Part shown: positions 29,377-60,551 of the stretch, piece by piece | How the letters are laid out: every line of letters starts with the position of its first letter | Numbering within the stretch: the first letter of the stretch is position 1 | Source: a virus | Taxonomy: Duplodnaviria; Caudoviricetes | IMG/VR virus record: IMGVR_UViG_3300049844_000087 | Span: 14,423 to 78,422 of that record | Length of the DNA: 64,000 bases | Direction: 5' to 3' (one strand) | Translations under genes and position numbers: made by a program | Notes under the pieces: model-generated | The model's database searches: none | What the model was told of the DNA's origin: nothing | Seen by the model: only the letters and a program-made list of their open reading frames with translations

Positions 29377-29631
29377 TCACAAGCCCTTGAGCTTTTTTAC
29401 TTTCTCAAGGTCTGCCATCTTTCGCTGGACCTTTGCCAAGGCTTTTTTCTCGATTGCGGTGACTGCTGCGATTGACATTCCCAGTAACTTACCAATTTCG
29501 TTCAATGTGTGAGGTCGTGCATTATGACGCATGTATGTAAAAAAGCAATTATAGAACGCAGGAGCGTTTACACGCCATTCCTCTGGGTTCTCATTGCACT
29601 TACAATTGTCACGGTGTACGATCTTACTCAT
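29377..29631 (-). CDS. Small sigma70 region-4-like HTH protein with Cys-rich N-terminus
   Basis: HTLNEIGKLLGMSIAAVTAIEKKALAKVQR matches sigma R4 (TLxEIGxxLGxSxxxVxxIExxALxKLR). Confidence 0.75.
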   Translation of the reverse strand: MSKIVHRDNCKCNENPEEWRVNAPAFYNCFFTYMRHNARPHTLNEIGKLLGMSIAAVTAIEKKALAKVQRKMADLEKVKKLKGL

Positions 29632-33635: not shown

Positions 33636-34472
33636 ATGAATGTCGATTACGAATTCCTTGGTGGACAAAATTCTGACGAAACCGTAAGAGCCTATAAAAC
33701 GGATCTTGAGCAGTTTCAAGTTATTGCTGGTGGAGAGTTGACTAGAGGCGGAGTCATCCTTTTTAGGGATGAGTTGCTCAAACAAGGACTGTCCCCTTCT
33801 ACAGTTGCCCGAAAGATGTCTACAATTCGTAGTTACTGTGAATTCCTGCGAGGCCAAGGAAAACTTAGCATTGATCCCTTTGCTGGCGTCAAAGCACCTA
33901 AAGTGTCAGTGTCCGAGCCTACTCAAGCTTTTACCGACGATGAAGTTCGTAAAATGTTCAAAGTAGTAGAGAAGACGCAAAAACCAGTAGAGCGTGAGCG
34001 AGATAAGCTGGTATTGGGATTTTTGTTTTATGCAGGATTGCGCAGATCAGAGATTGCTAGTCTAAAATTCTCTGACATCAAAGAACTTGAAGGCCAAATA
34101 GTTATTCGAGTATTTGGTAAAGGCGGAAAGTACAGAATGATTCCTGCGCACCCAAAGCTCGCCGAAATGCTGTTACCACATTTGGTAAGCACTCCGTTGT
34201 GGCCTAAAGCATCCGATAGATCCCTTCTAGATATTAGCGGCGGAACAATTTACGCCATTGTAAAGAAATATGCAAAAATGGTTGGAGTTACGAGAAGCGT
34301 GTCTCCTCACTCTTGCAGAGCAACGGCAATCTCTCAGTTGTTAGAAAACGGAGAATCGCCAAGAAACGTTGCAGATTTTGCAGGTCATGCCAGTGTCAAT
34401 ACGACTATTGGCTCTTATGACAAAAAACGAGATGGAATTAAAAACAGCGCAGCAATGAAGTTGCGATTTTAA
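33636..34472 (+). CDS. Tyrosine recombinase (XerC/D-like)
   Basis: SAM-like N-domain (T..RKMSTIRSY..FL); YAGLRRSE, GKGGK, HSCR, GHAS..TT..Y catalytic set. Confidence 0.93.
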   Translation: MNVDYEFLGGQNSDETVRAYKTDLEQFQVIAGGELTRGGVILFRDELLKQGLSPSTVARKMSTIRSYCEFLRGQGKLSIDPFAGVKAPKVSVSEPTQAFTDDEVRKMFKVVEKTQKPVERERDKLVLGFLFYAGLRRSEIASLKFSDIKELEGQIVIRVFGKGGKYRMIPAHPKLAEMLLPHLVSTPLWPKASDRSLLDISGGTIYAIVKKYAKMVGVTRSVSPHSCRATAISQLLENGESPRNVADFAGHASVNTTIGSYDKKRDGIKNSAAMKLRF

Positions 34473-36663: not shown

Positions 36664-36927
36664 GTGATTAAAGTAAAAGGAATAGAAGATTCAGAACTTG
36701 AGTGGAACTATACTTCTCCACCTAAGTTTTACAAGAAAATCAGCAAGACTCCAGACTCAGATGGAATCTTTAAAGTAGAAGTTTTTAAGCTGAAGAGTTT
36801 TAACGTTTTCACTAAGGAAGCTGTTTATGTGAAAGCAAAGAACGAGAAAATGCGTTCTACTCTTCCAGCAGAGCAACAGTTTAATTATGCTACGCCTAAG
36901 AAACGTGGCTATGATATTGAAGATTAA
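36664..36927 (+). CDS. Hypothetical protein
   Basis: GTG start after AGGAGG. Confidence 0.6.
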   Translation: MIKVKGIEDSELEWNYTSPPKFYKKISKTPDSDGIFKVEVFKLKSFNVFTKEAVYVKAKNEKMRSTLPAEQQFNYATPKKRGYDIED

Positions 36928-36952
36928 TAACCGAAGTAACATAGGAGGGAAA

Positions 36953-37462
36953 ATGTCTACTTCAAAAACGCAGAATAATAAATTGGCCGTAACCGTAGCT
37001 GCTTCTAGCCGCTATAAAATCCAAAAGAACGGAGTTATTAAAAAACTCACGTCTAGTGGAAATTATCGTGCAATTGGCACAGAAAGGCACGGATATAACG
37101 TTATATCTGTTGGCGGTAAAAAAATCGTCACAGCTCGAATCTTGGCAGCAAAGCAGTATTTACAACTTGGCTTTTCTCCTCAGTACGTTGTCGAGCTTTT
37201 GAATAAACGAGTGGTGGTTCGCAGAAATGGTAAAAGCCTTGACGACCGAAGAGTAAATCTTACGGCTGTAACTTCTACAGCACTTGTTAGAAAAGAGACT
37301 ACAAAACGTTTAACGCAAAAACAAATTGATCGAATGGTCGAATTGTTTTTCGATGGTTACTCTGTTGCAAAAATTGCTCGTCGATTTCGACGTAAAGTCT
37401 CTCGTTCTCACATCAGTCGCATTATTCGCAAAGAACTCGGTATTGAAACGGTAGGAGCATAA
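36953..37462 (+). CDS. Degenerate NUMOD4/HNH-like protein with C-terminal HTH
   Basis: YKIQKNG.I..., RRNGKSLDDRRVNL where HxxGxxxNN..xNL is expected; LTQKQI..M..LF.DGYSVAKIARRF...SRSHISRI HTH. Confidence 0.55.
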   Translation: MSTSKTQNNKLAVTVAASSRYKIQKNGVIKKLTSSGNYRAIGTERHGYNVISVGGKKIVTARILAAKQYLQLGFSPQYVVELLNKRVVVRRNGKSLDDRRVNLTAVTSTALVRKETTKRLTQKQIDRMVELFFDGYSVAKIARRFRRKVSRSHISRIIRKELGIETVGA

Positions 37463-43779: not shown

Positions 43780-43882
43780 GGGTGCAGTGGATGTGGTGGA
43801 GTTGGGTGGCATCGCTCTCGCTTGAAGCCGGAATATATGGCGAGAAACGTAATGACCAGACAAGACCAAGAGTTGCTGAGCC

Positions 43883-43950
43883 TGGGGTAAGGTAGTTGGG
43901 TAACTACACCGTAGCAACGGAGATTGGGAGTTCGAGTCTCTCTACCCCGA
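43883..43950 (+). ncRNA. tRNA-like RNA with truncated anticodon arm
   Basis: TGGGGTA/TACCCCG acceptor, GTAG/CTAC D stem, GGGAG-TTCGAGT-CTCTC T arm, but anticodon arm only 12 nt (CCGT-AGCA-ACGG); followed by T7. Confidence 0.6.
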
Positions 43951-43960
43951 ATTTTTTTAG

Positions 43961-43989
43961 TTGACAAAAACAGTTAAGTATTATAAGGT
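43961..43989 (+). promoter_or_regulatory. sigma70-like promoter
   Basis: TTGACA-17-TAAGGT. Confidence 0.6.
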
Positions 43990-43995
43990 GGGTAC

Positions 43996-44217
43996 ATGAG
44001 TCAAATAATGATAAAGAAGAAAAAGCCTAAGAGGGTTTACAAAATGGAAGAACTAACTAAGAGTGACATTGAGTTGTTGATTCAAGCTGCTAGTACGCCA
44101 CCAGAGTATTTTTTCTGCTTTGGGATGGCTTGGTACAAACTGTTCGCTTTGGGTTTGATTGATGAAGATACTCGGGTGACTCAGGATGGGATTATGGCGA
44201 TAAGGAGTTTTCAATGA
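43996..44217 (+). CDS. Hypothetical protein
   Basis: 73-aa ORF after promoter. Confidence 0.5.
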   Translation: MSQIMIKKKKPKRVYKMEELTKSDIELLIQAASTPPEYFFCFGMAWYKLFALGLIDEDTRVTQDGIMAIRSFQ

Positions 44218-48529: not shown

Positions 48530-48689
48530 TAATTTATGACACCATGCGTCATTTAGGTGTGCAAAAATTACAAAAAGTAGTAGAACTATCAAGAACTTAT
48601 TACACACTATAAAAAAAATTTTTCAATCAGAATTTTGACCCGATGGAACCAAACTTTCGGGGCGGTTGAAATCTTGACGCAGTGCGTCA
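48415..48689. repeat. Three 15-bp palindromes TGACGCA-N-TGCGTCA
   Basis: 48415 TAACGCAGTGCGTCA, 48537 TGACACCATGCGTCA, 48675 TGACGCAGTGCGTCA. Confidence 0.7.
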
Positions 48690-48799
48690 TCTAATATAAT
48701 ACAAAAAAATTTTGTGACAGACTACTAGGCACAGGTATTGGGCTCGGCACTGCAAGGCAGCTATCCCCCCGTAACCACTAGGGAATCCCATATTGATAC

Positions 48800-48827
48800 A
48801 TTGATGATAATGTATATTATCGTCAGA
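48800..48827. other. dif-like tyrosine-recombinase site
   Basis: ATTGATGATAA-TGTATA-TTATCGTCAGA: 11-6-11 layout, core ATAATGTATATTAT identical to E. coli dif, arms nearly symmetric. Confidence 0.7.
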
Positions 48828-49025
48828 GTCTCATTTTGAGACGCTCATTTTGTTTTTTCTTTTTTATCTTATAAGGTCTTGAAAGTTTAGGATTGAAAGC
48901 CTTATGCGCTCGACTAGATACTGTCTAGACGGCTTTCGTCTGTCTTGCAAGCCGTTGACTTTCGTCTTGAAACCGCTGTCAGTCTCATTCTGAGAATTTA
49001 TTTTTGATTTTTTTGCTTTCAAGCC

Positions 49026-49052
49026 TTAAGTCCTGTCAATTGACGCCGATAA
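49026..49052 (+). promoter_or_regulatory. sigma28-type promoter 1
   Basis: TTAAGTCC-11-GCCGATAA. Confidence 0.7.
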
Positions 49053-49099
49053 GTATAAGGTCAAGACAAGCAAGTCTTGCAAAACAAAGGAGTATCAAA

Positions 49100-49351
49100 A
49101 TGAAACGAAATTCAATCAACGGACATCTTGTTTCAATATGGAACGAAATCGTTGACCAACTAAGTCTGTCTCAATATGAGTCAACTATGGGTGGCGACAT
49201 GTCTTATAAGTCTAAGGCGGAAAGGGCAATGCAAGTGTCTCGAAATAAGACGGTTCATGCCTTATGTCTCGAATTGATAAACGTCTATGATTCTCATTTC
49301 GGGACAAGTGCCTTAACTGTCTCAAATAGAGACTTTTCTGATTTTGAGTGA
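49100..49351 (+). CDS. Early hypothetical protein
   Basis: ATG 49100 after AAAGGAGTATCAAA. Confidence 0.7.
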   Translation: MKRNSINGHLVSIWNEIVDQLSLSQYESTMGGDMSYKSKAERAMQVSRNKTVHALCLELINVYDSHFGTSALTVSNRDFSDFE

Positions 49352-49383
49352 TTTTCACGGTCTGTCAATATAAGGCTTTCGTC

Positions 49384-49415
49384 AAGGCGGCGGTTTCAAG
49401 ACCGCCGTTTTATTT
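49384..49415 (+). terminator. Intrinsic terminator
   Basis: GGCGGCGGT-TTCAAG-ACCGCCGT then TTTTATTTTT. Confidence 0.7.
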
Positions 49416-49606
49416 TTGCTTATCCTTATCAGTCCTGAAAGCCGTTGACCTGTCTTGTCTGTCCTTATGCCTTTCGGTCTGTCTTATCCTGTCTTGTCCT
49501 TATGTTTCCTTATACGGTCTTAAGACTTTCAATTTATTTTTTGCTGTCTAAGGCATTGAATTCAAGGTCGAATCTCATTTTGAGAATAAATAGTTGACTT
49601 TTTCTC

Positions 49607-49633
49607 TCAAGTTTTATAAACTGAAACCGATAA
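49607..49633 (+). promoter_or_regulatory. sigma28-type promoter 2, overlapping sigma70-like TTGACT-17-TAAACT (49594-49622)
   Basis: TCAAGTTT-11-ACCGATAA. Confidence 0.8.
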
Positions 49634-49681
49634 GACAGTATAAGCAAGTCAAGACGGCTTGCAAAACAAAGGAGTATCAAA

Positions 49682-49855
49682 ATGAGAATACCTAAGTTGC
49701 CAATTGGACAAGCGAACGTGTGTATCAAAAAGATACGGACAGCGAAAGCGCAAGGCTGCAAAATGCTGAAAGGCTGGAAAGCGATGAAATCGGCTCAAAT
49801 TGAGACGGCTTTCAATACGCCAGTCCTTTGTATCAAAGTGAGACGTGCGGCATAA
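49682..49855 (+). CDS. Early 57-aa basic protein
   Basis: Below track cutoff; MRIPKLPIGQANVCIKKIRTAK... after the conserved SD. Confidence 0.7.
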   Translation: MRIPKLPIGQANVCIKKIRTAKAQGCKMLKGWKAMKSAQIETAFNTPVLCIKVRRAA

Positions 49856-49884
49856 GTTTTTTTTGATTTTTTTGCTTTCAGGTC

Positions 49885-49911
49885 TCAAGTTTATTTTTGA
49901 TTGACCGATAA
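49885..49911 (+). promoter_or_regulatory. sigma28-type promoter 3
   Basis: TCAAGTTT-11-ACCGATAA. Confidence 0.8.
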
Positions 49912-49961
49912 GACAGTATAAGCGGCGAAATGATTCGACCGCAAAAACAAGGAGTATCAAA

Positions 49962-50756
49962 ATGAGTCAGATTCAAGTTTTCGACAAAAATGCAGGTTTC
50001 AACGTATCAGAACGATACAAGGCTGTTAACACGGCGACTTTGGTGTCTCAATTCGAGGCGGCTGGCTATACAGTGTCTCAAGTTAAGACGGCTCGTGTTC
50101 GCTTGCCTGAAAAGCAAGGCTTTCAAAAACACCTTATCAGATTGAGACATCCGTCGTTGACAGTCAATGCGCTTTCAGGCTTGACGCCCGAAATCGTTGT
50201 CTCAAATTCATACGATGGCACGGCGGCTTTCCGTCTCATGATGGGAATTTTCCGCATTGTCTGCTCGAACGGTCTCATTGTGGGACAGGCTTATGAGTCA
50301 ATTCGAGTCGTCCACGTTGGCGACGCATTGACTAAGGTCTTGCAAGCCGCAAATCGAGTTCAGTCTCAAACTGATACGATTGCGTCTCAAATCGAGAAAT
50401 GGTCGTCAATCCAATTGACCGATGCACAAGCGTCTCAATTTGCGACAGCAGCAAGCAAGTTGCTTTTGCCGTCTCAAAGTGATACAAACGTGATTCCATT
50501 GGTTCGTTCTGAGACACTTTTGAAAGTCCGCCGTCTTGACGATAGGTCTCAAGACCTTTGGACCGTATTCAATCGAATTCAGGAAAATGCTTTGCAAGGC
50601 GGTCTGTCTTATACTCGACTCGGCGGTCAAGGTCAAGTCCGAAACATGACGGCACGTCGAATCAATTCGATTGACCGATCAATCGAAGTCAATCGGGCCT
50701 TATGGGATCTTGCGTCTCAGATTGAGACAAGCGGTGGCATTATTCAAGCCGCATAA
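49962..50756 (+). CDS. DUF932/DUF945 family protein
   Basis: SERY......L......G....Q...R...K..FQKH.IRLR...PEIVV.NSYDG..AF.LM.GIFR.VCSNGLIVG. Confidence 0.85.
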   Translation: MSQIQVFDKNAGFNVSERYKAVNTATLVSQFEAAGYTVSQVKTARVRLPEKQGFQKHLIRLRHPSLTVNALSGLTPEIVVSNSYDGTAAFRLMMGIFRIVCSNGLIVGQAYESIRVVHVGDALTKVLQAANRVQSQTDTIASQIEKWSSIQLTDAQASQFATAASKLLLPSQSDTNVIPLVRSETLLKVRRLDDRSQDLWTVFNRIQENALQGGLSYTRLGGQGQVRNMTARRINSIDRSIEVNRALWDLASQIETSGGIIQAA

Positions 50757-50771
50757 GGTCAAGACCTTGAA

Positions 50772-50805
50772 ACGGCGGCGCTTTCGAGCGCCGTCGATTT
50801 TTTTG
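50772..50805 (+). terminator. Intrinsic terminator
   Basis: ACGGCGGCGC-TTTCGA-GCGCCGT hairpin then T-tract. Confidence 0.65.
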
Positions 50806-50814
50806 ATTTTTGCC

Positions 50815-50841
50815 TTAAGTTTTATTTTTTTGCGCCGATAA
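50815..50841 (+). promoter_or_regulatory. sigma28-type promoter 4
   Basis: TTAAGTTT-11-GCCGATAA. Confidence 0.85.
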
Positions 50842-50885
50842 GCATAAGGTCAAGGCATTGACGCCGAGACCGAAGGAGTATCAAA

Positions 50886-51173
50886 ATGAGAACATTCAAG
50901 TTTATAAGGTTTCAAGACTTGACAGGGACAAGCGGCGTCGGTCACGTTGCAAGCGGTCAAGTTGACGCAAGCGGCTTGACTCAAGTCCGCTGGACCGTTG
51001 ACGCAAGACTTGCGGACGGCTCGACTCGCAAGATCAATTCAGTGACTCAATTTGAGACGTGGACTGATGCGGTCTTGCTTCACGGTCACGGCGGACGGAC
51101 TGTCTTAGTTTGGGACGACACCAACGAAACTGTCTCAGATTTAGACATCTTAGGCTTGAAAGCCGCCGCATAA
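50886..51173 (+). CDS. Conserved phage hypothetical protein
   Basis: MRTF...R..D.TG.SG.G.VA.G......G....RW......HGHGG.T..VW. Confidence 0.75.
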   Translation: MRTFKFIRFQDLTGTSGVGHVASGQVDASGLTQVRWTVDARLADGSTRKINSVTQFETWTDAVLLHGHGGRTVLVWDDTNETVSDLDILGLKAAA

Positions 51174-51202
51174 GTTTTTTTTGATTTTTTTGCTTTCAGG
51201 TC

Positions 51203-51229
51203 TCAAGTTTTAAAACTTTCGACCGATAA
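51203..51229 (+). promoter_or_regulatory. sigma28-type promoter 5
   Basis: TCAAGTTT-11-ACCGATAA. Confidence 0.8.
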
Positions 51230-51277
51230 GACAGTATAAGCAAGTCAAGACGGCTTGCAAAACAAAGGAGTATCAAA

Positions 51278-52024
51278 ATGAGATTGTTAACTGAAGCCCA
51301 TGCCAATGCGAAAACCGCAAAAAATGCCTCAAAAGGAGATTTTCTGTCCTATATTTTGCATTTTGCGCCTTATAAGCTTTCAGGCGTCAACGTCTGTCCA
51401 ATGGCAAGCCGTGGATGCGCCGCCGCTTGCCTTAACACGGCTGGACGTGGCCGTTTCGATTCGATACAACAGGCTCGTATCAAAAAGACACAACGATTTT
51501 TTAAAGACCGTCAAGGTTTCCTTGCGGACTTAGTTAAGGACTTGCAAGCGGTCGAGCGCAAGGCAAAAAAACACGGCTTGCAAGCGGTCGTGAGACTCAA
51601 CGGGACAAGTGACATTGACTGGACCGCTGTCAAGACAGACGACGGTCAAAACGTGTTCGAGCGTTTCAAAACGATACAGTTTTACGACTATACCAAAGTG
51701 ATACGCCGTCTCGAAAAGATGCGTCTCAATCCGATACCTAATTATCATTTGACATTTTCTCGAAGTGAGTCAAATCATGCTGACTGTCTCAAAGCGATAC
51801 AGTTAGGTTTCAACGTTGCCGCCGTGTTTCAAACTGAGGCGTTTCCTGAAACCTTTGAAAGCCGTCCAGTGATTGACGGCGACTCTCACGACTTGCGTTT
51901 CCTTGACTTGAAACCGCTGGACGGTCAAGGCGCTTTCGTTGCCTTGAAAGCCAAAGGACAGGCAAAAAAAGACCTTTCAGGTTTCGTGATTCAACTTGAG
52001 ACAGCCATCGGAAAGGTGGCTTAA
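51278..52024 (+). CDS. GP88-family protein (radical-SAM-related)
   Basis: NAKT.K, VCPMASRGCAAACL, RLNGTSDI, QFYDYTK, YHLTFSRSE, DGD.HDLRFLD. Confidence 0.85.
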   Translation: MRLLTEAHANAKTAKNASKGDFLSYILHFAPYKLSGVNVCPMASRGCAAACLNTAGRGRFDSIQQARIKKTQRFFKDRQGFLADLVKDLQAVERKAKKHGLQAVVRLNGTSDIDWTAVKTDDGQNVFERFKTIQFYDYTKVIRRLEKMRLNPIPNYHLTFSRSESNHADCLKAIQLGFNVAAVFQTEAFPETFESRPVIDGDSHDLRFLDLKPLDGQGAFVALKAKGQAKKDLSGFVIQLETAIGKVA

Positions 52025-52025
52025 T

Positions 52026-52217
52026 ATGAGACAAATCAAATTAAAACAGTCAATGATTCAAGATGAGACACTATGCTGTCCGTACTGCATGGACGAAGTG
52101 TCTCAAGATGATACAGGTTGTTGTGGCGAGTCGTCGGCTCATTTTGAGAAAGCTTATGTGACTCAAGATGAGACATATCTTGACTCTGAGGTCGAAATCA
52201 TTGACGACTCAAATTGA
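52026..52217 (+). CDS. Small Cys-rich acidic protein
   Basis: CCPYC...GCCGES; ATG 52026. Confidence 0.6.
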   Translation: MRQIKLKQSMIQDETLCCPYCMDEVSQDDTGCCGESSAHFEKAYVTQDETYLDSEVEIIDDSN

Positions 52218-52243
52218 TTCAAAAATAAAGTTGACCGAAAGTC

Positions 52244-52270
52244 TCAAGTTTTAAAACTTTCGACCGATAA
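52244..52270 (+). promoter_or_regulatory. sigma28-type promoter 6
   Basis: TCAAGTTT-11-ACCGATAA. Confidence 0.8.
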
Positions 52271-52334
52271 GGATAAGGACAGCAAAAAAACCGAGACCGT
52301 CAAGACGGCGGTCTCAAAACAAAGGAGTATCAAA

Positions 52335-52814
52335 ATGGGATATACGCATTATTTCACTTTCAAAAAAGCGCCGAAAGGCAAGGCGTCTCAAATCGAGACG
52401 AACTATCAAAAGGCATTGATTGACTGTCAACGTATCATTTTGGCATATAGCAACGTCAACGGCGGTCTGTCCGGTTTCAGTGCCCATACCAAATTGGGAC
52501 AGTATGGCGGTCTCAATGTGAATGGCTCAAAAGAAGACGGTCACGAGACTTTCGTCTTGCGTGAACACTTTTCTCAAAATGAGTCATTCAATTTTTGCAA
52601 GACCGCTCGAAAGCCTTATGATACGGTCGTCACGGCTTGCCTTATCGTCTTGTCTTATCGACTCGGCGCTTGCATTGACGTGTCAAGCGACGGCGACGCA
52701 ACGGACTGGACCGAAGGCTTGCGGCTTGCGCAAAAAGTTCTCAAATTGAAACGATTACAAATTCCATCAGGTGTCTCAAATCGAGACAACGATTCAATGG
52801 ATGAGTCGGCTTGA
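52335..52814 (+). CDS. Conserved phage hypothetical protein (MGYTHY family)
   Basis: MGYTHY...HETF...FNFCKTARKPYD..V.A.L...SSDG. Confidence 0.75.
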   Translation: MGYTHYFTFKKAPKGKASQIETNYQKALIDCQRIILAYSNVNGGLSGFSAHTKLGQYGGLNVNGSKEDGHETFVLREHFSQNESFNFCKTARKPYDTVVTACLIVLSYRLGACIDVSSDGDATDWTEGLRLAQKVLKLKRLQIPSGVSNRDNDSMDESA

Positions 52815-52878
52815 TACTCCACGCCCCTGTCTCATTTTGGGGCAGGGGCTTTCTTAACATAAGCAAAGGAGTCTCACA

Positions 52879-53073
52879 ATGGAACGTATCAAAATGCAAC
52901 GAAGTGTTTGGTGGCCTATCAAATTGAAACAAGGTCAAACTGTCTCATTTCAAGGCAAGACTTATAAGGTCGTGTCTCAAACTGAGAAACCTTCTGATTC
53001 ATGGTGTTTCAGAATGAGATACTACACGTCTCTAATCGAGACAGAAATGGAGTCTCAAAATGGGATCAACTAA
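52879..53073 (+). CDS. Early hypothetical protein
   Basis: SD AAAGGAG. Confidence 0.6.
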   Translation: MERIKMQRSVWWPIKLKQGQTVSFQGKTYKVVSQTEKPSDSWCFRMRYYTSLIETEMESQNGIN

Positions 53074-53665
53074 TATCGAATTGATACAAAAAGGAAAGCT
53101 GTCTCGAAATGAGATTTACGACGCTTTCAAAAATCAGCAAGATCAAGACCGTCTCGAAAATGGACATCAATCGGGATATTCTGGCGACTTTCAAACTGTC
53201 TCAAAAGTAGACTATCGACTTGATCAAGTCTTTACGTCTCAATCTGAGGCACATGATTTTTGTTTGAAACATGCCTCAAAATGGGACACTGTGGTGGCCG
53301 TCTATTTTCTTGACCTGAAAGTCGAAAGCAAGCGCATTGATAAGGCAAGGCAAGCGGTCAAGGCATTGACTCAAGACCTTGCAAGCCTTGAATCGACGCC
53401 GCTTGATAAGTCCAGCGGTTTCAAGACTTGCGGCGCTTGCAAGTCTCGACTTTCAATGAGTCACGTCAAGCGGTCTTGCTGTCCAGTCTGTCAATCGGAC
53501 TTAAGACCGAAAGCCTTAGTCAAGCGCATTGAAAGCCTGAAAGCAAAAATCAAGGCGGCGCAAGACAGGCTCGAAAGTCTTGTCAAGTCCGAAAGGCAAA
53601 AAGCATTGACGAAAGCAAAACCGTCTCAATTTAGTACGATGCTGGCTGGCTGGGGAGCGTGTTAA
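53060..53665 (+). CDS. Early protein with Zn ribbon and coiled coils
   Basis: GH.SGYSGD, CGACKS...CCPVC; ends AGWGAC. Confidence 0.7.
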   Translation: MGSTNIELIQKGKLSRNEIYDAFKNQQDQDRLENGHQSGYSGDFQTVSKVDYRLDQVFTSQSEAHDFCLKHASKWDTVVAVYFLDLKVESKRIDKARQAVKALTQDLASLESTPLDKSSGFKTCGACKSRLSMSHVKRSCCPVCQSDLRPKALVKRIESLKAKIKAAQDRLESLVKSERQKALTKAKPSQFSTMLAGWGAC

Positions 53666-53684
53666 TTTGAGACACAAAAATCCC

Positions 53685-53712
53685 TTAAGTTTTTGAGCGT
53701 TTCGACCGATAA
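53685..53712 (+). promoter_or_regulatory. sigma28-type promoter 7
   Basis: TTAAGTTT-12-ACCGATAA. Confidence 0.7.
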
Positions 53713-53743
53713 GGTTTCAGACAATAAACAAAGGAGTATCAAA

Positions 53744-53992
53744 ATGAGTCAATCAAATGTTATCAAGTTGAATGATCGTCGAGCAAGTCCAGTCAATGAG
53801 GAAAGTCTTTTGCTGGTCAACCTTGCGCAAGTATTGATCGAAGTCGTGAGGCAACACGGAGCCCACACGACATTGACAGCGGTCCAAGGCATGATTCAAG
53901 AGGCACAAAAACAAGTCCGCACCGAGCGTCAACACAAGCCGACAAAGACCAATCTACCTGTCTCAAAACGAGCCGTTGGGGGTGCCAAGTGA
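53744..53992 (+). CDS. Early hypothetical protein
   Basis: ATG 53744 after the conserved SD. Confidence 0.65.
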   Translation: MSQSNVIKLNDRRASPVNEESLLLVNLAQVLIEVVRQHGAHTTLTAVQGMIQEAQKQVRTERQHKPTKTNLPVSKRAVGGAK

Positions 53993-54198
53993 AATGTCTC
54001 ATTGTGAAGCATACCCTTGGCGGTCGTTCTTGGTACATGGTCCAGCAAGGCGCTTTGACCTTATCGACTCCGCTCGACACTTTCGAGCAAGCTACCGAGT
54101 GGATCAAGTCAATGGCTGGTGTCCAGCGTCTCGGATGCTACCGCATAAGCGACGACTTGACAGCGGTCCATTTTGAAGAGTCGAAAGGAGTCTCATAA
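53989..54198 (+). CDS. Early hypothetical protein
   Basis: GTGA overlap. Confidence 0.5.
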   Translation: MKCLIVKHTLGGRSWYMVQQGALTLSTPLDTFEQATEWIKSMAGVQRLGCYRISDDLTAVHFEESKGVS

Positions 54199-54500
54199 TG
54201 GAACAGCCTAAGCTTATCGCAAGGCTCGAAGAGATTGTCAAAGGTATTGACAGACATCAACGAGTCAATGCGTCGGACATGCCAATGCTGGCACAGTTTT
54301 TGAAAGTAGAGATTGCAAGGCTTAAGCGTATCAATTCAGCGCAAACAGTCGAGCGCATGAGACAAATTTCGGAGCGGCTTAGCGACTTAAGTCCAAAGAT
54401 TGACAGCGGTCGTTTCAAGTATTCCGAAAAGCAAGAAAAGGACAGGCTTGTCAATGAGTATCTAGAATTGGAACAACAAATTGAAGGGGTTTCAAAATGA
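54198..54500 (+). CDS. Early coiled-coil protein
   Basis: SD AAAGGAG, TAATG overlap. Confidence 0.6.
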   Translation: MEQPKLIARLEEIVKGIDRHQRVNASDMPMLAQFLKVEIARLKRINSAQTVERMRQISERLSDLSPKIDSGRFKYSEKQEKDRLVNEYLELEQQIEGVSK

Positions 54501-54715
54501 AACGTAATGCGTATCTCTTTGAGACAGATGCCTTTCAAGTGAGAGTTTACAACGAAGCCGAGACCGTTGACATGTTTGGTCAAGACTACCTCGAAGAGTA
54601 CGGTCACACGGTCCCGATTGAATTGCTCGAAAGGTATCGAAAGGCTTTCGTCGAAATGCAAGCCGTACAAGATCAATTGAGAGCCATTATAAAGACTCAA
54701 GAAAAGGAGTATTAA
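54497..54715 (+). CDS. Early hypothetical protein
   Basis: ATGA overlap. Confidence 0.6.
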   Translation: MKRNAYLFETDAFQVRVYNEAETVDMFGQDYLEEYGHTVPIELLERYRKAFVEMQAVQDQLRAIIKTQEKEY

Positions 54716-54716
54716 A

Positions 54717-54938
54717 ATGATACTAATTAAAGGTCAATCCAAATATGCCAGAGTTGAGCGTCTTGTCCATAAGTTAGACGATGACATACTGTCTTGGATC
54801 GAGTCACTTGAGGAGTCGGGTTTCGTGATCTTGTTCACCAATCTACCGTCTCACATTAATACACATGAGGTGTACGCCGCAATTCTACTTGATCAGTTCG
54901 CAGATATGTATCTACCTGAGACATCTACAGGTCACTAG
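54717..54938 (+). CDS. Early hypothetical protein
   Basis: SD AAGGAG. Confidence 0.55.
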   Translation: MILIKGQSKYARVERLVHKLDDDILSWIESLEESGFVILFTNLPSHINTHEVYAAILLDQFADMYLPETSTGH

Positions 54939-54975
54939 GGTGACATTTTTTTATTGTAATACTTGATAATTTTGC

Positions 54976-55003
54976 TAAAGTATTTCAATCAACCTACCGA
55001 TGA
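54976..55003 (+). promoter_or_regulatory. Possible variant sigma28 promoter
   Basis: TAAAGTAT-12-ACCGATGA, -10 inside CCTAC...GTAGG hairpin. Confidence 0.45.
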
Positions 55004-55027
55004 GAGTAGGAGAAAGGCAAGGGACCA

Positions 55028-55816
55028 ATGTTTAAGTTTGAATCAATAGACCAATTAGACACAAAGGGCAACACAAGCTGGCTCATTGAGGGACTTTTGC
55101 CAGAGTCGTCAACTTGTCTCGTGGCAGGTGATCCCAAGACGAGAAAGTCTTGGTTGGCAGGGGAATTGCTAGTCAGTATTGCCACAGGTGAGAAGTGTTT
55201 CGGAGTTTACAACGTTGTCAAGCAAGGTCGAGTGATGATGATACAAGGCGAGGACAGCGGTGCAATCATTCGAGAGCGTCTAGAGCAAATCAATCGAGCC
55301 AAGCAAGGCAGTGCCAAGGCATTGAAAGAGAATGTTTCAATCGTGGCAGGTCAAAGCTTTGCGCTTGATAATGATGAACACTTTGAGGCATTGCGCTTGC
55401 AAGTCTTAAAGGAAAGGCCATTGCTTATCATTTTAGACCCTTTGGTCCGTCTCATTCCGAACACTGCCGAAGGTTCAACGTCTCAGATGTCTAAGATTTT
55501 GACAAAGCTTCGTCACTTGCAACGTGACAGCGGGACATCAATCATGCTGGTGCATCACAACAAGACATCGAAGTCTAAGAATGCCGCTGACAATATCCGA
55601 GGCAGTTCAGACTTGCGGTCCTGGTATGATGCGGCGTATTTCCTGACCAAGCCAGTCGGACACGTCACGCAAATTGATTTTGAATTCAAGGCTTTCGGCG
55701 AGCAACCTGCTTTCTTCTTTGAATTAAAGAATGCGAACACTGGACTTGCGCCGATGGGACTTGTATCAATGGAAGACATTAGAAAGTTGGTTAAAAATGA
55801 AAACGATATTGTATAA
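55028..55816 (+). CDS. AAA_25 / RecA-fold (RepA-helicase-like) ATPase
   Basis: WLIEGLLP, GDPKTRKSW, MIQGED, IILDPL, LVHHNK, IRGSS. Confidence 0.85.
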   Translation: MFKFESIDQLDTKGNTSWLIEGLLPESSTCLVAGDPKTRKSWLAGELLVSIATGEKCFGVYNVVKQGRVMMIQGEDSGAIIRERLEQINRAKQGSAKALKENVSIVAGQSFALDNDEHFEALRLQVLKERPLLIILDPLVRLIPNTAEGSTSQMSKILTKLRHLQRDSGTSIMLVHHNKTSKSKNAADNIRGSSDLRSWYDAAYFLTKPVGHVTQIDFEFKAFGEQPAFFFELKNANTGLAPMGLVSMEDIRKLVKNENDIV

Positions 55817-56033
55817 ACGACACATTGCATTCCATATTGGAGACGTTTTACTTGTCTCATTTTCAGACAAGCCTTCTCGTTTTCAAGTTGTTGAAGTTAA
55901 CAAGCGCAAAAACATTTTAAAAATTGAGGTATTAGAGGATCATTACAAAGATCCGTTTCAAGTTGGAGCAGTCGTCGATATAGGAACGCAGATTTTTAAA
56001 AAGTATTGGTTTTTTAATTTTGAAAACCGCTAA
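55797..56033 (+). CDS. SH3/KOW-like small protein
   Basis: FHIGDVLLV; ATG 55797. Confidence 0.5.
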   Translation: MKTILYKRHIAFHIGDVLLVSFSDKPSRFQVVEVNKRKNILKIEVLEDHYKDPFQVGAVVDIGTQIFKKYWFFNFENR

Positions 56034-56057
56034 AGTTTTTCAGAATTGTGCCGATAA
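56031..56057 (+). promoter_or_regulatory. sigma28-type promoter 8 (perfect consensus)
   Basis: TAAAGTTT-11-GCCGATAA. Confidence 0.9.
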
Positions 56058-56077
56058 GCATTGAAATAGGAGAGAAC

Positions 56078-56290
56078 ATGGGACCGTATGCTTACGCAAT
56101 TAAAATTAACTATGGAAAGCAGAAAGTGCAAACGAGTCACAAAGCTTTGTTGCCAGACACGGCGATAAATATCGAACAATTGCAAGAGATTGTAGGCCAT
56201 AACACTTTTGTTTTTGTTGCAGAGGATAGCTCATTCTCGCAAGACATTTTTGTTTGTTGGAATACTTATCGAGATGAGACTGATGAATAG
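56078..56290 (+). CDS. Early hypothetical protein
   Basis: ATG 56078 after AGGAG. Confidence 0.55.
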   Translation: MGPYAYAIKINYGKQKVQTSHKALLPDTAINIEQLQEIVGHNTFVFVAEDSSFSQDIFVCWNTYRDETDE

Positions 56291-56359
56291 CAAGCGTCTC
56301 GAATTGCGAAAGACGAAGCTTACATGGCTGAGTATAGAAAAAGAAATTCAAAATAACGC

Positions 56360-56386
56360 TAAAGTTTTTTGGAAAGCTGCCGATAA
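56360..56386 (+). promoter_or_regulatory. sigma28-type promoter 9 (perfect consensus), before rIIA
   Basis: TAAAGTTT-11-GCCGATAA. Confidence 0.9.
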
Positions 56387-56431
56387 GTATTATATGAAAG
56401 GCAATGAAGCCGAGTAACAAGGAGTAATAAA

Positions 56432-58498
56432 ATGAGAATCGCAGGACACGGTAACAAATACGAAAGCAATCAACAAACTGAGACACAGTCGTTTGGCATC
56501 GGTGATGCAAGCGTGGTGATCGAAATCCTGCGCAATAGATTGTATGAGCATAAGATTCGCACACTCGTTCAAGAGTATATGAGCAATGCTCGTGATGCTC
56601 ATCGTGAGGCTGGACAGACACGACGCATTGAAGTTGTGGCACCGACTCAACTTGAGCCAACATTCAAGGTTCGAGACTTTGGTCCTGGCATTAGTCCAGA
56701 CCGCATGGCTAACGTGTTCGTGCTTTACGGAGCATCAACAAAGCGTCAAAACAATACACAAACTGGTGGCTTTGGCATCGGTGCTAAGTCCGCATGGTCT
56801 TATGCTGATGGTTTCATCATCGTGTCAACGGTCAACGGCACTCGTCGCACTTATCATGCACACGTTGGAGCGTCTAACGTTGGTCAACTTGACTTGCTGT
56901 CTACTGAAAAGACAGACGATCCGAATGGATGCGAAATTCAAGTGGCAGTCAATCCTCGTGATGTTACAGAATTTTGTAACTCGATCAAGCGTGCATGTTA
57001 CTTCTGGAATAAAGAAGAGACTCCACTGCTTAAGAATGTGACACTCCCTGATGCGCTGTCAACTTATGATGTCAACGCTTTGAGCATCGTACCTAGCAAC
57101 GTGTCAATGCCTGACTTCTTGAATGCTTATGGTCGCACTGACTTGCTAGTCGTTGACGGCATCATTTACAACCTTAACAGAGACTTGCTCGACAAGGTGC
57201 CACAGTTGCGAGACCTTCGCAACGAATTGAATGGCTCGATGGTGATCCGTATCCCTAATGGTCTTGTGCAAGTATCAGCAAGCCGTGAGAAGCTTGACGA
57301 CTCAGACTTCACTCGTAAAGGTCTTGCTAAGATTGGCACGAAACTATTGACTGACGTAAAGAAACACGTTTCAGATAAGATCGGCGCAATCTCTACTGTC
57401 AAAGGTTTCGTTGAGACTTATCACAGCATGTTCCGTTTCTTTGTGATGCAGAACAACGAGTACAAAGGTTTCCGTTTCGATGGACAGTTCCTTTACACTC
57501 CCCTTTTGGGTTCAGTTCACTTCGCAAAGTACACTGAATTCAGAGACAAGGTCAAGGCATCGTCTACCAAGGGAATTCCTTTCGAGCACATGGACAGAAT
57601 TTTCTTGCAAACTAAAGACGAGAATGCGGTCACATTCAATCGCAGAGTTCGAGCGTATCTCGCAAACAACCCTGAAATGTATGTGATCAGAGAGCGTCAA
57701 ACTACCTCTATCGACTCGACTGGAGCAACGGTCCAATTGAAGTTTGATGTTCCACCTGCGAAAGCCATGAAAGAATTGCAAGCTGTCTTGAACAAGTTTC
57801 AAGACTTTCATTCGATCAGTTTCGTAGTTCCACCTCGAACGCCGAAAGCCATGAAAGCCGCAAAGCTTGCGTCACAGCAAAGTTTTCACTACTTGAATGG
57901 CTGGGGCCGAGATACTCAAAACACGACCGTCACAGACTTGCAGTCCAAAGGTCGGGAGTACATTTACTTGCTGGTCTCTGAGTGGCAGAACGAAGGAAAG
58001 TACAAGTACAATCCGATGATCAAAGAATTCGGCGGTGACAGACGTGATCCTAAGTGCAAAAAGCCGATCTTTATCGCCGTGTCCAATACCACTGCGGACA
58101 TCATTAAGGACGAAGCTGGCTTCACTCCTTATGCTGATTGGATTGCCGGAGTCAAGTTAACTAATGATCTGCGTCTCAGAATGATGAATGCTAAAGCGTT
58201 GAATTCAGACGTGATTGAGAAACTGTCTCAACTTGAGGGTGTTAAGAATAAAAAGTTGACTAAAATGGTCGATCATTATAAGCTGATGAAGAAAGCCGCA
58301 AGTCAAGTTCACGGTTCGGAAGTACCTGACATGCTGGTAAAGATGTTTAAAGATGATGCGGACTATGTATCTTTCCTTGAGCAAGATCAAGAATTGAAAA
58401 CCTTGATCAATGATAAGTATCCGTTGCTTAAGCACATGGACCGATACTCGCACGCTGAATGTAAACGTGAAATGACTTGGTATTTGAACAATAAATAA
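56432..58498 (+). CDS. rIIA: RIIA-like protein (GHKL ATPase N-terminus)
   Basis: ILRNRLYEHKIRTLVQEYMSNARDAH, VRDFGPGIS, YGASTK, GGFGIGAKS. Confidence 0.85.
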   Translation: MRIAGHGNKYESNQQTETQSFGIGDASVVIEILRNRLYEHKIRTLVQEYMSNARDAHREAGQTRRIEVVAPTQLEPTFKVRDFGPGISPDRMANVFVLYGASTKRQNNTQTGGFGIGAKSAWSYADGFIIVSTVNGTRRTYHAHVGASNVGQLDLLSTEKTDDPNGCEIQVAVNPRDVTEFCNSIKRACYFWNKEETPLLKNVTLPDALSTYDVNALSIVPSNVSMPDFLNAYGRTDLLVVDGIIYNLNRDLLDKVPQLRDLRNELNGSMVIRIPNGLVQVSASREKLDDSDFTRKGLAKIGTKLLTDVKKHVSDKIGAISTVKGFVETYHSMFRFFVMQNNEYKGFRFDGQFLYTPLLGSVHFAKYTEFRDKVKASSTKGIPFEHMDRIFLQTKDENAVTFNRRVRAYLANNPEMYVIRERQTTSIDSTGATVQLKFDVPPAKAMKELQAVLNKFQDFHSISFVVPPRTPKAMKAAKLASQQSFHYLNGWGRDTQNTTVTDLQSKGREYIYLLVSEWQNEGKYKYNPMIKEFGGDRRDPKCKKPIFIAVSNTTADIIKDEAGFTPYADWIAGVKLTNDLRLRMMNAKALNSDVIEKLSQLEGVKNKKLTKMVDHYKLMKKAASQVHGSEVPDMLVKMFKDDADYVSFLEQDQELKTLINDKYPLLKHMDRYSHAECKREMTWYLNNK

Positions 58499-58527
58499 AC
58501 AGACCGAAAGGTCAGAAAGAAGGATTT

Positions 58528-58851
58528 ATGGAAACAATTAGCATTAACCGCATCATGGCTCGATCATTTATGAATACGTTGCAGTACGCAATGGTGATTG
58601 ATCAAGCCGCTCCAGTATTGCAATTAGACCGAGTCGGAGCCTTGCGGTTTCGATTGCTGAGCGATGCACAGTTGTCGGTTCTTTACAGCCTTGCGGCGCA
58701 TGTAACTGACCGCAATGAGGTCTTGGCCGAATATGATCTGATGATAAACACTGTTAAAGAGAAGTCACCTGACAATGCTTTCGTGCTTTCAGCATTGACA
58801 GAAGGTCGAGAGGCTTTGACAGAATTGTTAATTCAAGCAAAAAGTCACTAA
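58528..58851 (+). CDS. Hypothetical protein between rIIA and rIIB
   Basis: SD GAAGGA. Confidence 0.55.
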   Translation: METISINRIMARSFMNTLQYAMVIDQAAPVLQLDRVGALRFRLLSDAQLSVLYSLAAHVTDRNEVLAEYDLMINTVKEKSPDNAFVLSALTEGREALTELLIQAKSH

Positions 58852-58875
58852 AGTTTTTTGAAAAGTTGCCGATAA
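58849..58875 (+). promoter_or_regulatory. sigma28-type promoter 10 (perfect consensus), before rIIB
   Basis: TAAAGTTT-11-GCCGATAA. Confidence 0.9.
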
Positions 58876-58898: not shown

Positions 58899-59834
58899 AT
58901 GACACAAGTAAACTATCACATCACTCAAAATAGCGTGACTGTGAATTTTGAAGGAAAAACGTTTGCGATTGCTCGTGGCGACGAAAGGTTTCCAAGAGTT
59001 ATCGCAGCAATCAAGGAAAGCCGCTTGACAGATATTCCAGACATCGTGGATATTTACAAGCAATTTCAAGCTGATGGGCTTCGCTTGGTTGACGGTCAAG
59101 TCGTCACTTCAGACGGCGAGGCATTGCCAACGGAACTAAATGCTCGAATTCTTGAGTTTAGACGTGAGGGTTTGCCCTTTGAACACTTGCTCAAGTTCTG
59201 GGAAAACCTTAAGAGCAATCCTAGCTTTCGGTCTCGTGAACAGTTGTTCAAGTTTCTTGAACACAATGGACATCCGTTGACTGAGGACGGCTGCTTCATT
59301 GCCTACCGAGGCGTGACAAGCGACTTCAAAGATAAGCACACCGGAAAGTTTGACAACTCCCCTGGTGCCATTTGCGAAATGCCTCGAACGCAGGTTGATG
59401 ATGATCCTACTAGGACTTGCAGCGCAGGTCTGCACGTCGCAGCGTGGGAGTATGCTTCAGGCTTTGGCGAGACAAAGATAGAAGTTAAGGTCAATCCAAA
59501 GGACGTTGTTGCGGTGCCAGTTGATTACAACGGTCAAAAGATGCGTGTTTGTCGCTTTGAAGTGATTCAGCAATGTCACGACATGCGTGCTGATGAAGCT
59601 TTGTACGGTCGCAAGAACACGTTCCAAGACGAGGAAGTAGATCCGTTTGATTATGAAAACGAAGAAGACCACGGCTATGAGGGTATTGATGAGTCAGTTA
59701 GAGAAGACATTCTCCACTTGGCAAATCAACACTCACAGTACGAAGGTGAAGCTTTGGTTATGCGAGTGTGTGAGGATTCATTTGAAGAAGAAGAAACGAT
59801 TAGGCAAATTTTGTCAGATGATGGTCGTATTTAA
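58899..59834 (+). CDS. rIIB: RIIB-like protein
   Basis: FWENL..NP, FL......LTEDG.FIAYRGV, DNSPG, MPR.QVDDDP..TCS.GLHV, V.P.DVV.VP.DYN..K.R.C. Confidence 0.9.
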   Translation: MTQVNYHITQNSVTVNFEGKTFAIARGDERFPRVIAAIKESRLTDIPDIVDIYKQFQADGLRLVDGQVVTSDGEALPTELNARILEFRREGLPFEHLLKFWENLKSNPSFRSREQLFKFLEHNGHPLTEDGCFIAYRGVTSDFKDKHTGKFDNSPGAICEMPRTQVDDDPTRTCSAGLHVAAWEYASGFGETKIEVKVNPKDVVAVPVDYNGQKMRVCRFEVIQQCHDMRADEALYGRKNTFQDEEVDPFDYENEEDHGYEGIDESVREDILHLANQHSQYEGEALVMRVCEDSFEEEETIRQILSDDGRI

Positions 59835-59858: not shown

Positions 59859-60551
59859 ATGAAAAACGTAATGATTTTGCTAGTAATGGTTCTTATCGCA
59901 GGTTGTGCTAATGATCGAAATCTAGAGGCAACGGTCACGGCTATTGATGGTCGAAATGGTCACTCAATCGTGTCCGAGTACAAACAGTCTACCCAATTGG
60001 AGTGTGAGTCGTCGGGGTCACGTCTTGACATGTATATCGACATGGATGATTCGTTGACAGTATCTCAAGGCGATGTTTATGCCAATAGTTTGATTGCGTG
60101 CAACGGTCTCAATGGTCTTCAAGGTATCCAAGGCTTGCCAGGTACTAACGGCTCGAACGGTTCGGATGGAGCACAGGGTATTCCAGGTGCTCAAGGGCCA
60201 CAAGGTATTCAAGGAATTGCAGGTCCGCAAGGGGCTCCAGGATTGGACGGTGCTGATGGACAGCCTGGACCAACTGGTCCACAAGGCCCTCAAGGACCGC
60301 AGGGGATTCAAGGTCCGGCTGGCTCGTCTGGTGCTACAATCGTCTCATTCTCAGGAAGTTCTTGCACTCGATTGACAGGCACAAACTCTTACTTGAAGGC
60401 TTCAAATAACAATTATGCACTCTATACGAGTAGCAATTGTTCTAGCAACTCTAAGTTTGCTGAAGTTTCAGAAGGCGAGTCTTATTGGGTTAGTGCGAAT
60501 GCTTTGGCAGTTTATTCTGACACTGGACTTCGAGTAATTACTTTTAACTAA
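59859..60551 (+). CDS. Collagen-like lipoprotein
   Basis: Lipobox LIAGC; about 25 G-X-Y repeats. Confidence 0.8.

Follow-up and report, generated by a model that had tools for sequence, protein, structure and literature searches.

Eleven sigma-28-type sites in the distal part of a phage genome arm

The window analysed here is a stretch of 64,000 nucleotides, bases 14423-78422 of a single viral contig of 78,422 bp (G000, rated 67% complete by CheckV), and all coordinates below are window positions unless another contig is named. It comes from a myovirus, with genes for a tail sheath, a baseplate, a head protease and a major capsid protein, the last being about 35% identical to its counterparts in SPO1-like Herelleviridae. 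The virion genes occupy the minus strand from 29.6 kb downwards, and an arm on the plus strand spans 30.2-61.8 kb. Eleven sites resembling promoters of sigma-28 (FliA), the sigma factor that serves flagellar genes, are found in this arm, only in its distal 10 kb, together with intrinsic terminators and a dense array of the palindrome GTCTCA-N3-TGAGAC. Judging from their sequence and setting, we consider it reasonably probable that these sites are promoters read by the host RNA polymerase carrying the host's own FliA, with no phage sigma factor, a member of the Bdellovibrionales being the most likely host. The features of this island are listed below (ORF, open reading frame).

48828-58239, no strand: GTCTCA-N3-TGAGAC palindrome array, 62 of the 65 window copies (up to 2 mismatches), about one per 150 bp, mostly intragenic, co-extensive with the promoter island
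49026-49052, plus strand: sigma-28-type promoter 1, TTAAGTCC-N11-GCCGATAA then G, weakest -35 box; ahead of an 83-residue ORF (49100-49351)
49384-49411, plus strand: intrinsic terminator, 12-bp stem and T-tract
49607-49633, plus strand: sigma-28-type promoter 2, TCAAGTTT-N11-ACCGATAA then G; ahead of a 57-residue ORF (49682-49855)
49885-49911, plus strand: sigma-28-type promoter 3, -35 region reading GTCTCAAGTTT (half palindrome fused to the -35 box); ahead of a DUF932 gene (49962-50756)
50773-50796, plus strand: intrinsic terminator, 10-bp stem with 8 GC pairs
50815-50841, plus strand: sigma-28-type promoter 4, TTAAGTTT-N11-GCCGATAA then G, directly 3' of the terminator at 50773-50796; ahead of a 95-residue ORF (50886-51173, phrog_7499)
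51203-51229, plus strand: sigma-28-type promoter 5, in an 83-nucleotide promoter-leader cassette 93% identical to that at 49605; ahead of a GP88-family gene (51278-52024)
52244-52270, plus strand: sigma-28-type promoter 6; ahead of a 159-residue ORF (52335-52814)
52823-52849, plus strand: intrinsic terminator, 12-bp stem with a palindrome copy inside it
53685-53712, plus strand: sigma-28-type promoter 7, N12 spacer; ahead of an 82-residue ORF (53744-53992)
54976-55003, plus strand: degenerate eleventh site, TAAAGTAT-N12-ACCGATGA, canonical in the relative G001; ahead of an AAA_25 ATPase gene (55028-55816)
56031-56057, plus strand: sigma-28-type promoter, perfect consensus; ahead of a 70-residue ORF (56078-56290)
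56360-56386, plus strand: sigma-28-type promoter, perfect consensus, position kept in the relatives G001 and L032; ahead of an rIIA-like GHKL ATPase gene (56432-58498)
58849-58875, plus strand: sigma-28-type promoter, perfect consensus, position kept in G001 and L032; ahead of the rIIB gene (58899-59834)

The strict pattern AAGTTT-N10-13-CCGATAA has nine matches in the window, all on the plus strand and spanning 49609-58875, against a chance expectation of 0.02 in dinucleotide shuffles. An earlier note on this DNA had reported at least ten FliA-type promoters, the last three of them perfect, each usually followed by a near-identical Shine-Dalgarno (SD) block. All ten are indeed present where it placed them and co-oriented, and they fit T[ACT]AAGT(TT/CC)-N11/12-[GA]CCGATAAG. 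The tenth, at 49026, combines a weaker -35 box with a perfect -10 box, and has the upstream T-tract and the SD block of the others. A mismatch-tolerant scan adds the degenerate site at 54976, making eleven in all, and the same scan over both strands of the whole 78,422-bp contig found no comparable site outside 49026-58875. The perfect sites (56031, 56360 and 58849) read exactly TAAAGTTT-N11-GCCGATAA. The SD block AAGGAGTATCAAAATG is less general than had been described: it occurs 11 times in the region and lies 30-65 nucleotides 3' of seven of the ten sites, and the three perfect sites lack it.

Across the eleven sites, the -35 octamer is close to TAAAGTTT, with AAGTTT in nine of them after TA, TC or TT, and the -10 octamer is [GA]CCGATAA in ten. 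The two octamers are separated by 11 nucleotides in nine sites and by 12 in two. A G follows the -10 box in every case, giving CCGATAAG everywhere except at the degenerate site, which has CCGATGAG. The identification of this motif with the FliA/SigD consensus is borne out by the sigma-28 consensus published for the class 3 flagellar promoters of E. coli and Salmonella, TAAAGTTT-n11-GCCGATAA (PMC2859248).

All sites are intergenic and co-oriented with the genes, 20-65 nucleotides ahead of an SD sequence and a start codon, and some follow terminators. Promoter-leader cassettes are duplicated, with up to 93% identity over 83 nucleotides. The three intrinsic terminators are strong and part some of the cassettes from each other, so that single genes possess their own promoter and terminator, as morons do.

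Sigma-70-like elements also occur in the array. The site at 49607 is overlapped by a sigma-70-like TTGACT-17-TAAACT, and about 6 of 25 sites of the phage clade have a TTGAC(T/C/A) hexamer 7 nucleotides 5' of their sigma-28 -35 box (window positions 49590-49600 and 52226-52235, and orthologues in the relatives G001 and G003). This hexamer could represent overlapping sigma-70/sigma-28 promoters or an upstream element.

Genes behind the sites

The genes behind the sites encode a DUF932 protein, a GP88-family protein, an AAA_25 ATPase, an rIIA-like protein and RIIB, with several unannotated ORFs of 57-159 residues. The product of 56432-58498 has 688 residues, and residues 40-148 match HATPase_c and HATPase_c_3 (GHKL). 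The gene directly after it, 58899-59834, is a clear RIIB homologue (phrog_609, E 1e-66). We regard the former as a putative rIIA-like gene from its domain and synteny, no rIIA profile having been applied. A single-protein search with it returned no relatives; an alignment-based search did return some, including L032. Homologues with 33-38% identity are also present in two larger phages, L033 (170-kb contig) and L035 (176-kb contig), neither of which has a sigma-28-type site within 10 kb of the GHKL ATPase gene.

The part of the genome missing from this contig can be read in a collinear relative, IMGVR_UViG_3300021437_000001 (G001), of 117,954 bp and rated 100% complete, which adds genes for a chaperonin, a primase-helicase, PolA, RecA, RNR, TerS, portal, ligase and dUTPase. 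No site lies ahead of a virion or replication gene; the virion arm and G001's replication block are both free of them. The rIIA and rIIB products of T4 are abundant early proteins. Since no virion or replication gene stands behind the sites and the rII pair does, the term 'early-type' that had been applied to these genes seems a fair description of their content.

The proximal half of the arm (30.3-48.3 kb) carries genes for a class IV aminotransferase, ThyX, a tyrosine recombinase (33636-34472), an exonuclease, a peptide deformylase, UDG, a SET-domain protein, an AAA ATPase and DenV. The late operons are preceded by promoters of the sigma-70-like and extended -10 types, and more of them lie near 44.0 and 48.7 kb.

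The succession of promoter, gene and terminator is the classic layout of morons, and the host sigma-28 might read the sites of a prophage, plasmid-prophage or carrier state whose cassettes have an accessory or exclusion role, not an early lytic one. Such a role would fit with the tyrosine recombinase and with a dif-like site (48800-48827). Plasmids and integrative elements frequently carry proteins of the DUF932 and AAA_25 families, and the rII proteins of T4 take part in exclusion and defence interplay. However, G001 is a 118-kb myovirus whose PolA, primase-helicase, RNR, ligase and chaperonin make up a typical virulent gene set, no integrated member of the clade was found, the metagenome-assembled contig described below is wholly phage DNA, and no repressor or antirepressor module was recognised. 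We thus hold a moron-like role to be quite improbable.

Conservation of the two boxes within the clade

We compared 25 sites from four genomes, namely the present contig, G001, G003 and L032. G001 has eight strict sites on one strand of a single 8-kb stretch, and four lie at the contig end in G003. In L032, whose rIIA-like protein is 60% identical to that of the window, perfect sites lie about 70 nucleotides before the gene and directly behind it. Over the 25 sites AAGTTT and CCGATAAG do not vary, the one exception being the box at 54976, whereas spacer and flanks vary freely; [GA]CCGATAA is kept in 24 of them. Because the boxes are fixed while their surroundings drift, the pattern is that expected of a two-box promoter under selection.

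Could the repeats be binding sites for a protein of replication, packaging or recombination that resemble the sigma-28 consensus by chance? The island is unusual in any case, as it holds a second dense repeat, the palindrome. However, co-orientation, an intergenic position 20-65 nucleotides before SD and start codon or after a terminator, a spacer fixed in length and variable in sequence, and agreement with a known consensus are all traits of promoters, and make such a chance resemblance highly improbable.

Host assignment and the palindrome

Several lines of evidence connect this phage with the Bdellovibrionales, in agreement with the predatory Bdellovibrionota host proposed in the earlier note: a capsid-bearing contig, GC content and the palindrome. 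The capsid gene has a 93% identical counterpart on a 15-kb contig, consisting entirely of phage DNA, in the metagenome-assembled genome (MAG) 'Proteobacteria bacterium SG_bin7', the genome that gives its name to the Bdellovibrionales family SG-bin7. A published table gives the GTDB lineage of this 3.26-Mb MAG as Bdellovibrionota; Bdellovibrionales; SG-bin7, and its GC content as 42.3%; that of the phage is about 42%. Each of the family's four genomes has a FliA gene scoring above the curated cut-off and 7-8 flagellin genes, with flagellin promoters that show the geometry of the phage sites in a less perfect form, such as TCAAGTCT-N11-ACCGATCA. We consider it quite likely that the host belongs to the Bdellovibrionales.

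The palindrome is the strongest link to the host. Each SG-bin7 genome has 3-6 perfect copies, against none of a reversed control. Of 384 Bdellovibrionales genomes, 343 contain the perfect word, usually 3-35 times, whereas the control word appears 0-2 times. In the outgroup Chitinophagales only 5 of 201 genomes have it, with a single copy in each, a level not above that of the control. Across the surrounding 215 bases, no reading frame is open at 17 of the 20 copies in two complete Bdellovibrionales genomes. The palindrome of host genomes can contain a sigma-28 -35 box, for example GTCTCAAGTTGAGAC-N7-GCCGATAAG, and the phage -35 boxes at 49885, 51203 and 52244 likewise read GTCTCAAGTTT, with half a palindrome fused to the box.

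Within the phage clade, palindrome and promoters cluster together: 61 of the 75 palindrome copies of G001 fall in two 5-kb bins (85-95 kb) that hold most of its sigma-28 sites. We looked for a fixed operator geometry between palindrome and promoter and found none, as the copies are scattered and mostly lie inside genes. Since the palindrome can overlap the sigma-28 -35 box in host genomes, it probably allows a DNA-binding protein, of host or phage, to gate the island or shut it off. The palindrome also recurs, in degenerate form, as the conserved SD-ATG block GTATCAAAATGAGA.

Similar arrays in other phages

More than 114 loci in the viral collection match AAGTTT-N11-RCCGATAAG. Single matches are at about the level expected by chance, and strand-consistent clusters occur in several unrelated viral contigs of 28-55% GC, including L105, L099, L058, L077 and L107. 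Two complete genomes illustrate this. The first (G012, 87.6 kb, 31% GC; L173-L177) has 11 co-oriented sites between 53.7 and 82.6 kb. The second (G013, 89.9 kb; L178-L182) has 4-5 near its end, at 87-89.9 kb and 1.1 kb. Neither encodes a detectable sigma factor and neither has a palindrome array. In all these other lineages, the genes behind the sites are small or without annotated function, and never structural.

Cultured phages offered no nucleotide match to the present clade, to G012 or to G013, and relatives at the protein level show at most 25-36% identity. The site pattern has no match in Mx1, PHB04, Dolphis, ST4 and Touem01, five cultured myoviruses whose hosts are flagellated. A single consensus shared by unrelated phages is as predicted if its reader is a conserved cellular protein. 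As the array recurs in several unrelated viral lineages, it is not unique to this phage and may be a general strategy.

Search for a phage-encoded sigma factor

The earlier note had called for a search of the rest of the genome for a phage-encoded sigma-28-like factor. Six-frame searches with Sigma70_r2, Sigma70_r4_2 and full-length sigma-70 models (PF04542, PF08281, PF04545, TIGR02937) detected no sigma factor in either the present contig or the complete G001, except for one ORF of 84 residues that holds sigma region 4 only. Scans of about 130 proteins of these two genomes with Pfam and PHROGs are supportive, in that no sigma factor appears among the matches (bulk PHROGs matches being listed to E ~2e-9). 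We also examined 36887-37462 (P0001), which has a C-terminal Sigma70_r4 match, as a possible small sigma factor, and rejected it: Pfam assigns it to HTH_7, a resolvase-type helix-turn-helix, and it lacks region 2. Nor did we find a FlgM-like anti-sigma factor that might serve as an off-switch in G000, G001, G012 or G013. With no sigma factor detectable in the phage, the host motility sigma is probably used.

The 84-residue protein (29377-29631, minus strand), matched by PF04545 and TIGR02937, is encoded by the first gene of the late head operon. It belongs to a family of 27 proteins, all of about 84 residues, confined to this phage clade and conserved throughout it, with invariant His6, Cys10, Cys12 and Cys29 in the N-terminal third. 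Its best alignment is to primary sigmaA, region 4.2 (1KU3/1KU7). Its recognition helix reads SIAAVTAIE, against TRERIRQIE in sigmaA, and has lost the residues that read DNA. We therefore discarded the idea of a FliA region-4 mimic or -35 reader, as the protein shows no preference for FliA models either; without the -35-reading residues, it is unlikely to read TAAAGTTT. It could instead be a decoy or a beta-flap binder acting on the host sigma-70.

Arrays of phage-specific promoters usually come with a reader made by the phage, and the sites might be middle promoters served by a sigma factor too divergent to be detected, or by a split sigma in which the 84-residue protein acts with an unrecognised region-2 partner. 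That protein is conserved throughout the clade, about 18 kb of other genes precede the sites, which lie in the arm's distal half, and two large contigs of other phages with arrays, G016 and G018, do encode a divergent sigma-like protein with regions 2-3. However, no region-2 signal is found in the complete G001, and G000, G001, G012 and G013 all lack a homologue of the G016/G018 protein. The 84-residue protein, for its part, resembles region 4.2 of primary sigma factors, not FliA, and its gene leads a late operon. Finally, the motif is the exact cellular consensus, identical in unrelated phages of 28-55% GC, unlike the motifs of known phage sigma factors. A phage-made reader therefore strikes us as unlikely.

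How the island may work

In the reading that we prefer, the host core polymerase with host FliA would initiate at the eleven sites with no need for a phage protein. The sites would unite about 25 non-structural genes (rIIA/rIIB, DUF932, GP88, the AAA_25 ATPase and many small ORFs) in a regulon of their own, organised as short cassettes of promoter, leader, SD sequence, gene and, in some, terminator. The island would be switched on at DNA entry; we infer this early timing. A motile cell contains FliA holoenzyme beforehand, so the genes could fire as soon as the DNA enters, and their expression would be tied to the swimming state. In a predator of the Bdellovibrio kind, FliA drives the free-swimming attack phase, the sole stage at which such a host is exposed to phage, and a phage that meets only free-swimming, non-growing attack-phase cells would gain from FliA-class promoters. 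A second layer of control may come from a DNA-binding protein, of host or phage, that occludes the -35 box or coats the island. Sigma-70-like promoters elsewhere in the genome and the TTGAC overlaps suggest that both holoenzymes, sigma-70 and sigma-28, are probably used by the phage.

Several observations weigh against this scheme. The failure to detect a sigma factor is bounded by the sensitivity of hidden Markov models, and a very divergent one of the T4 gp55 kind could escape them. The RpoD-like proteins of the array-bearing G016 and G018 (L170:1465-2484, minus strand, and L172:1066-2112, plus strand) form a family of about 340 residues, apparently without region 4, and are 31% identical to each other; that these phages carry both an array and a sigma-like protein makes a phage reader possible in principle. 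The proximal half of the arm contains no sigma-28-type site in the whole-contig scan, and since sigma-70-like promoters exist elsewhere, the island need not be the first to be transcribed. The proposal of the earlier note that these promoters launch infection is thus best taken as an inference.

As to the host, the routes of prediction suggested before, CRISPR spacers, tRNA and metabolic genes, gave no signal from any of the three. No spacer linked phage and host when about 49 kb of the window was compared with the SG-bin7 family and one 20-kb segment with 384 Bdellovibrionales genomes; these searches returned only gene homology (def, thyX) and marginal short matches without repeats. Searches with the deformylase and ThyX were filled by proteins of the phage clade, with no close cellular neighbour, and the phage tRNA-Met showed no similarity to the candidate host family. 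Moreover, two short contigs of the clade (2-2.7 kb) were binned in Saccharibacteria and Chitinophaga MAGs, which is probably mis-binning.

Comparison with known systems

The phage sites share with class 3 flagellar promoters the same two octamers and the same 11-nucleotide spacer, and the -35 variants TCAAG and TTAAG are known from other Proteobacteria. They differ from flagellar promoters in being phage-borne, in forming an array of eleven, in preceding non-flagellar genes and in their invariant G after the -10 box. Flagellin promoters in the proposed host family also lie further from the consensus than these sites do.

Of the 140 promoters mapped in attack-phase B. bacteriovorus, 92 have TTAAG-N16-CCGATA (Karunker et al. 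2013, PMC3627812), and these two-thirds confirm the dominance of FliA in that phase on which the earlier note had relied. As in this regulon, sigma-28 would be used here far beyond flagella, and the candidate host belongs to the same order, in which host promoters can have a palindrome overlapping the -35 box as at the phage sites. The Bdellovibrio regulon is chromosomal, however, and its tapping by a phage was not found in the literature searched.

Phage sigma cascades, such as those of SPO1 (gp28 and gp33/34), T4 (gp55), phiEco32 (gp36) and phage 7-11 (gp47), also limit a distinct promoter class to one gene block and reuse the host core polymerase. Their motifs are idiosyncratic and shift between relatives, for instance tAATGTAtA in phiEco32 and GTAAtg-16-aCTA in phage 7-11 (PMC8948821). 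Phages of these types encode the sigma factor and apply it to middle or late genes, whereas here none was detected, the consensus is cellular and the genes are early-type. The nearest concept is the control by CtrA boxes in phages of Alphaproteobacteria (Mascolo et al. 2022, PMC9437464), where again the phage meets only a motile or appendage-bearing subpopulation and has genes wired to the host regulator of that state. However, CtrA is a response regulator acting on sigma-70 promoters, while in the present case the promoter class, hence the sigma factor, would be switched.

The rII genes resemble those of T4 in forming an adjacent pair, a GHKL-ATPase protein of about 690 residues followed by a RIIB homologue. 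In T4, rIIA and rIIB are transcribed from sigma-70 early and MotA-dependent middle promoters, whereas each rII gene here has its own perfect sigma-28-type promoter.

Phage transcription usually relies on the host housekeeping sigma factor first and on factors made by the phage later. If the scheme above is correct, a block of genes placed under an alternative sigma of the host would make infection depend on the host's state, here motility. This touches an old puzzle, namely how a phage starts in a cell in attack phase, where replication is absent and housekeeping transcription low. We found no paper describing a sigma-28 array on a sigma-less phage, ahead of rII or early-type genes and accompanied by a palindrome of the host lineage. 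The earlier remark that no phage programme built on sigma-28 was known thus holds for the literature searched, although the type of array itself recurs in other phages. The promoter class is textbook knowledge; its use in a phage array, with a host-lineage palindrome, appears to be new in that literature.

A broader proposal can be advanced only tentatively, and we find it open to more doubt than the reading of the individual sites. Sigma-28 arrays might be a widespread and so far unrecognised class of phage promoters that ties early or accessory genes to the state of the host cell. Here the host would be a Bdellovibrio-like predator whose attack-phase switch is tapped twice, through FliA promoters and through a palindrome that occludes the -35 box, so that the phage reads, and perhaps manipulates, the life stage of its host. 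If so, many uncultured lineages of sigma-less phages would hand part of their programme to the host motility sigma. The testable parts are at hand, with three perfect promoters (rIIA and rIIB among their targets) and a defined palindrome, and a promoter array combined with a lineage-specific palindrome would be a sequence signature for assigning uncultured phages to hosts.

Other features of the arm

An Rfam scan of the whole window gave no match. Directly after rIIB, on this non-structural arm, 59859-60551 (plus strand) encodes a 230-residue protein with collagen triple-helix repeats. In the intergenic stretch 43780-44043, positions 43900-43990 are tRNA-like and end in T-arm letters of the GGTTCGAGTC type; ARAGORN does not call them. 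A strong sigma-70-like promoter (TTGACA ... TATAAG) follows on the 3' side. Another, close to the sigma-70 consensus (TTGACG ... TATAAT), is present in 48620-48830 and leads into no ORF; about 150 nucleotides of GC-rich sequence come next, and then the dif-like site that borders the island. A small RNA gene may lie in this stretch.

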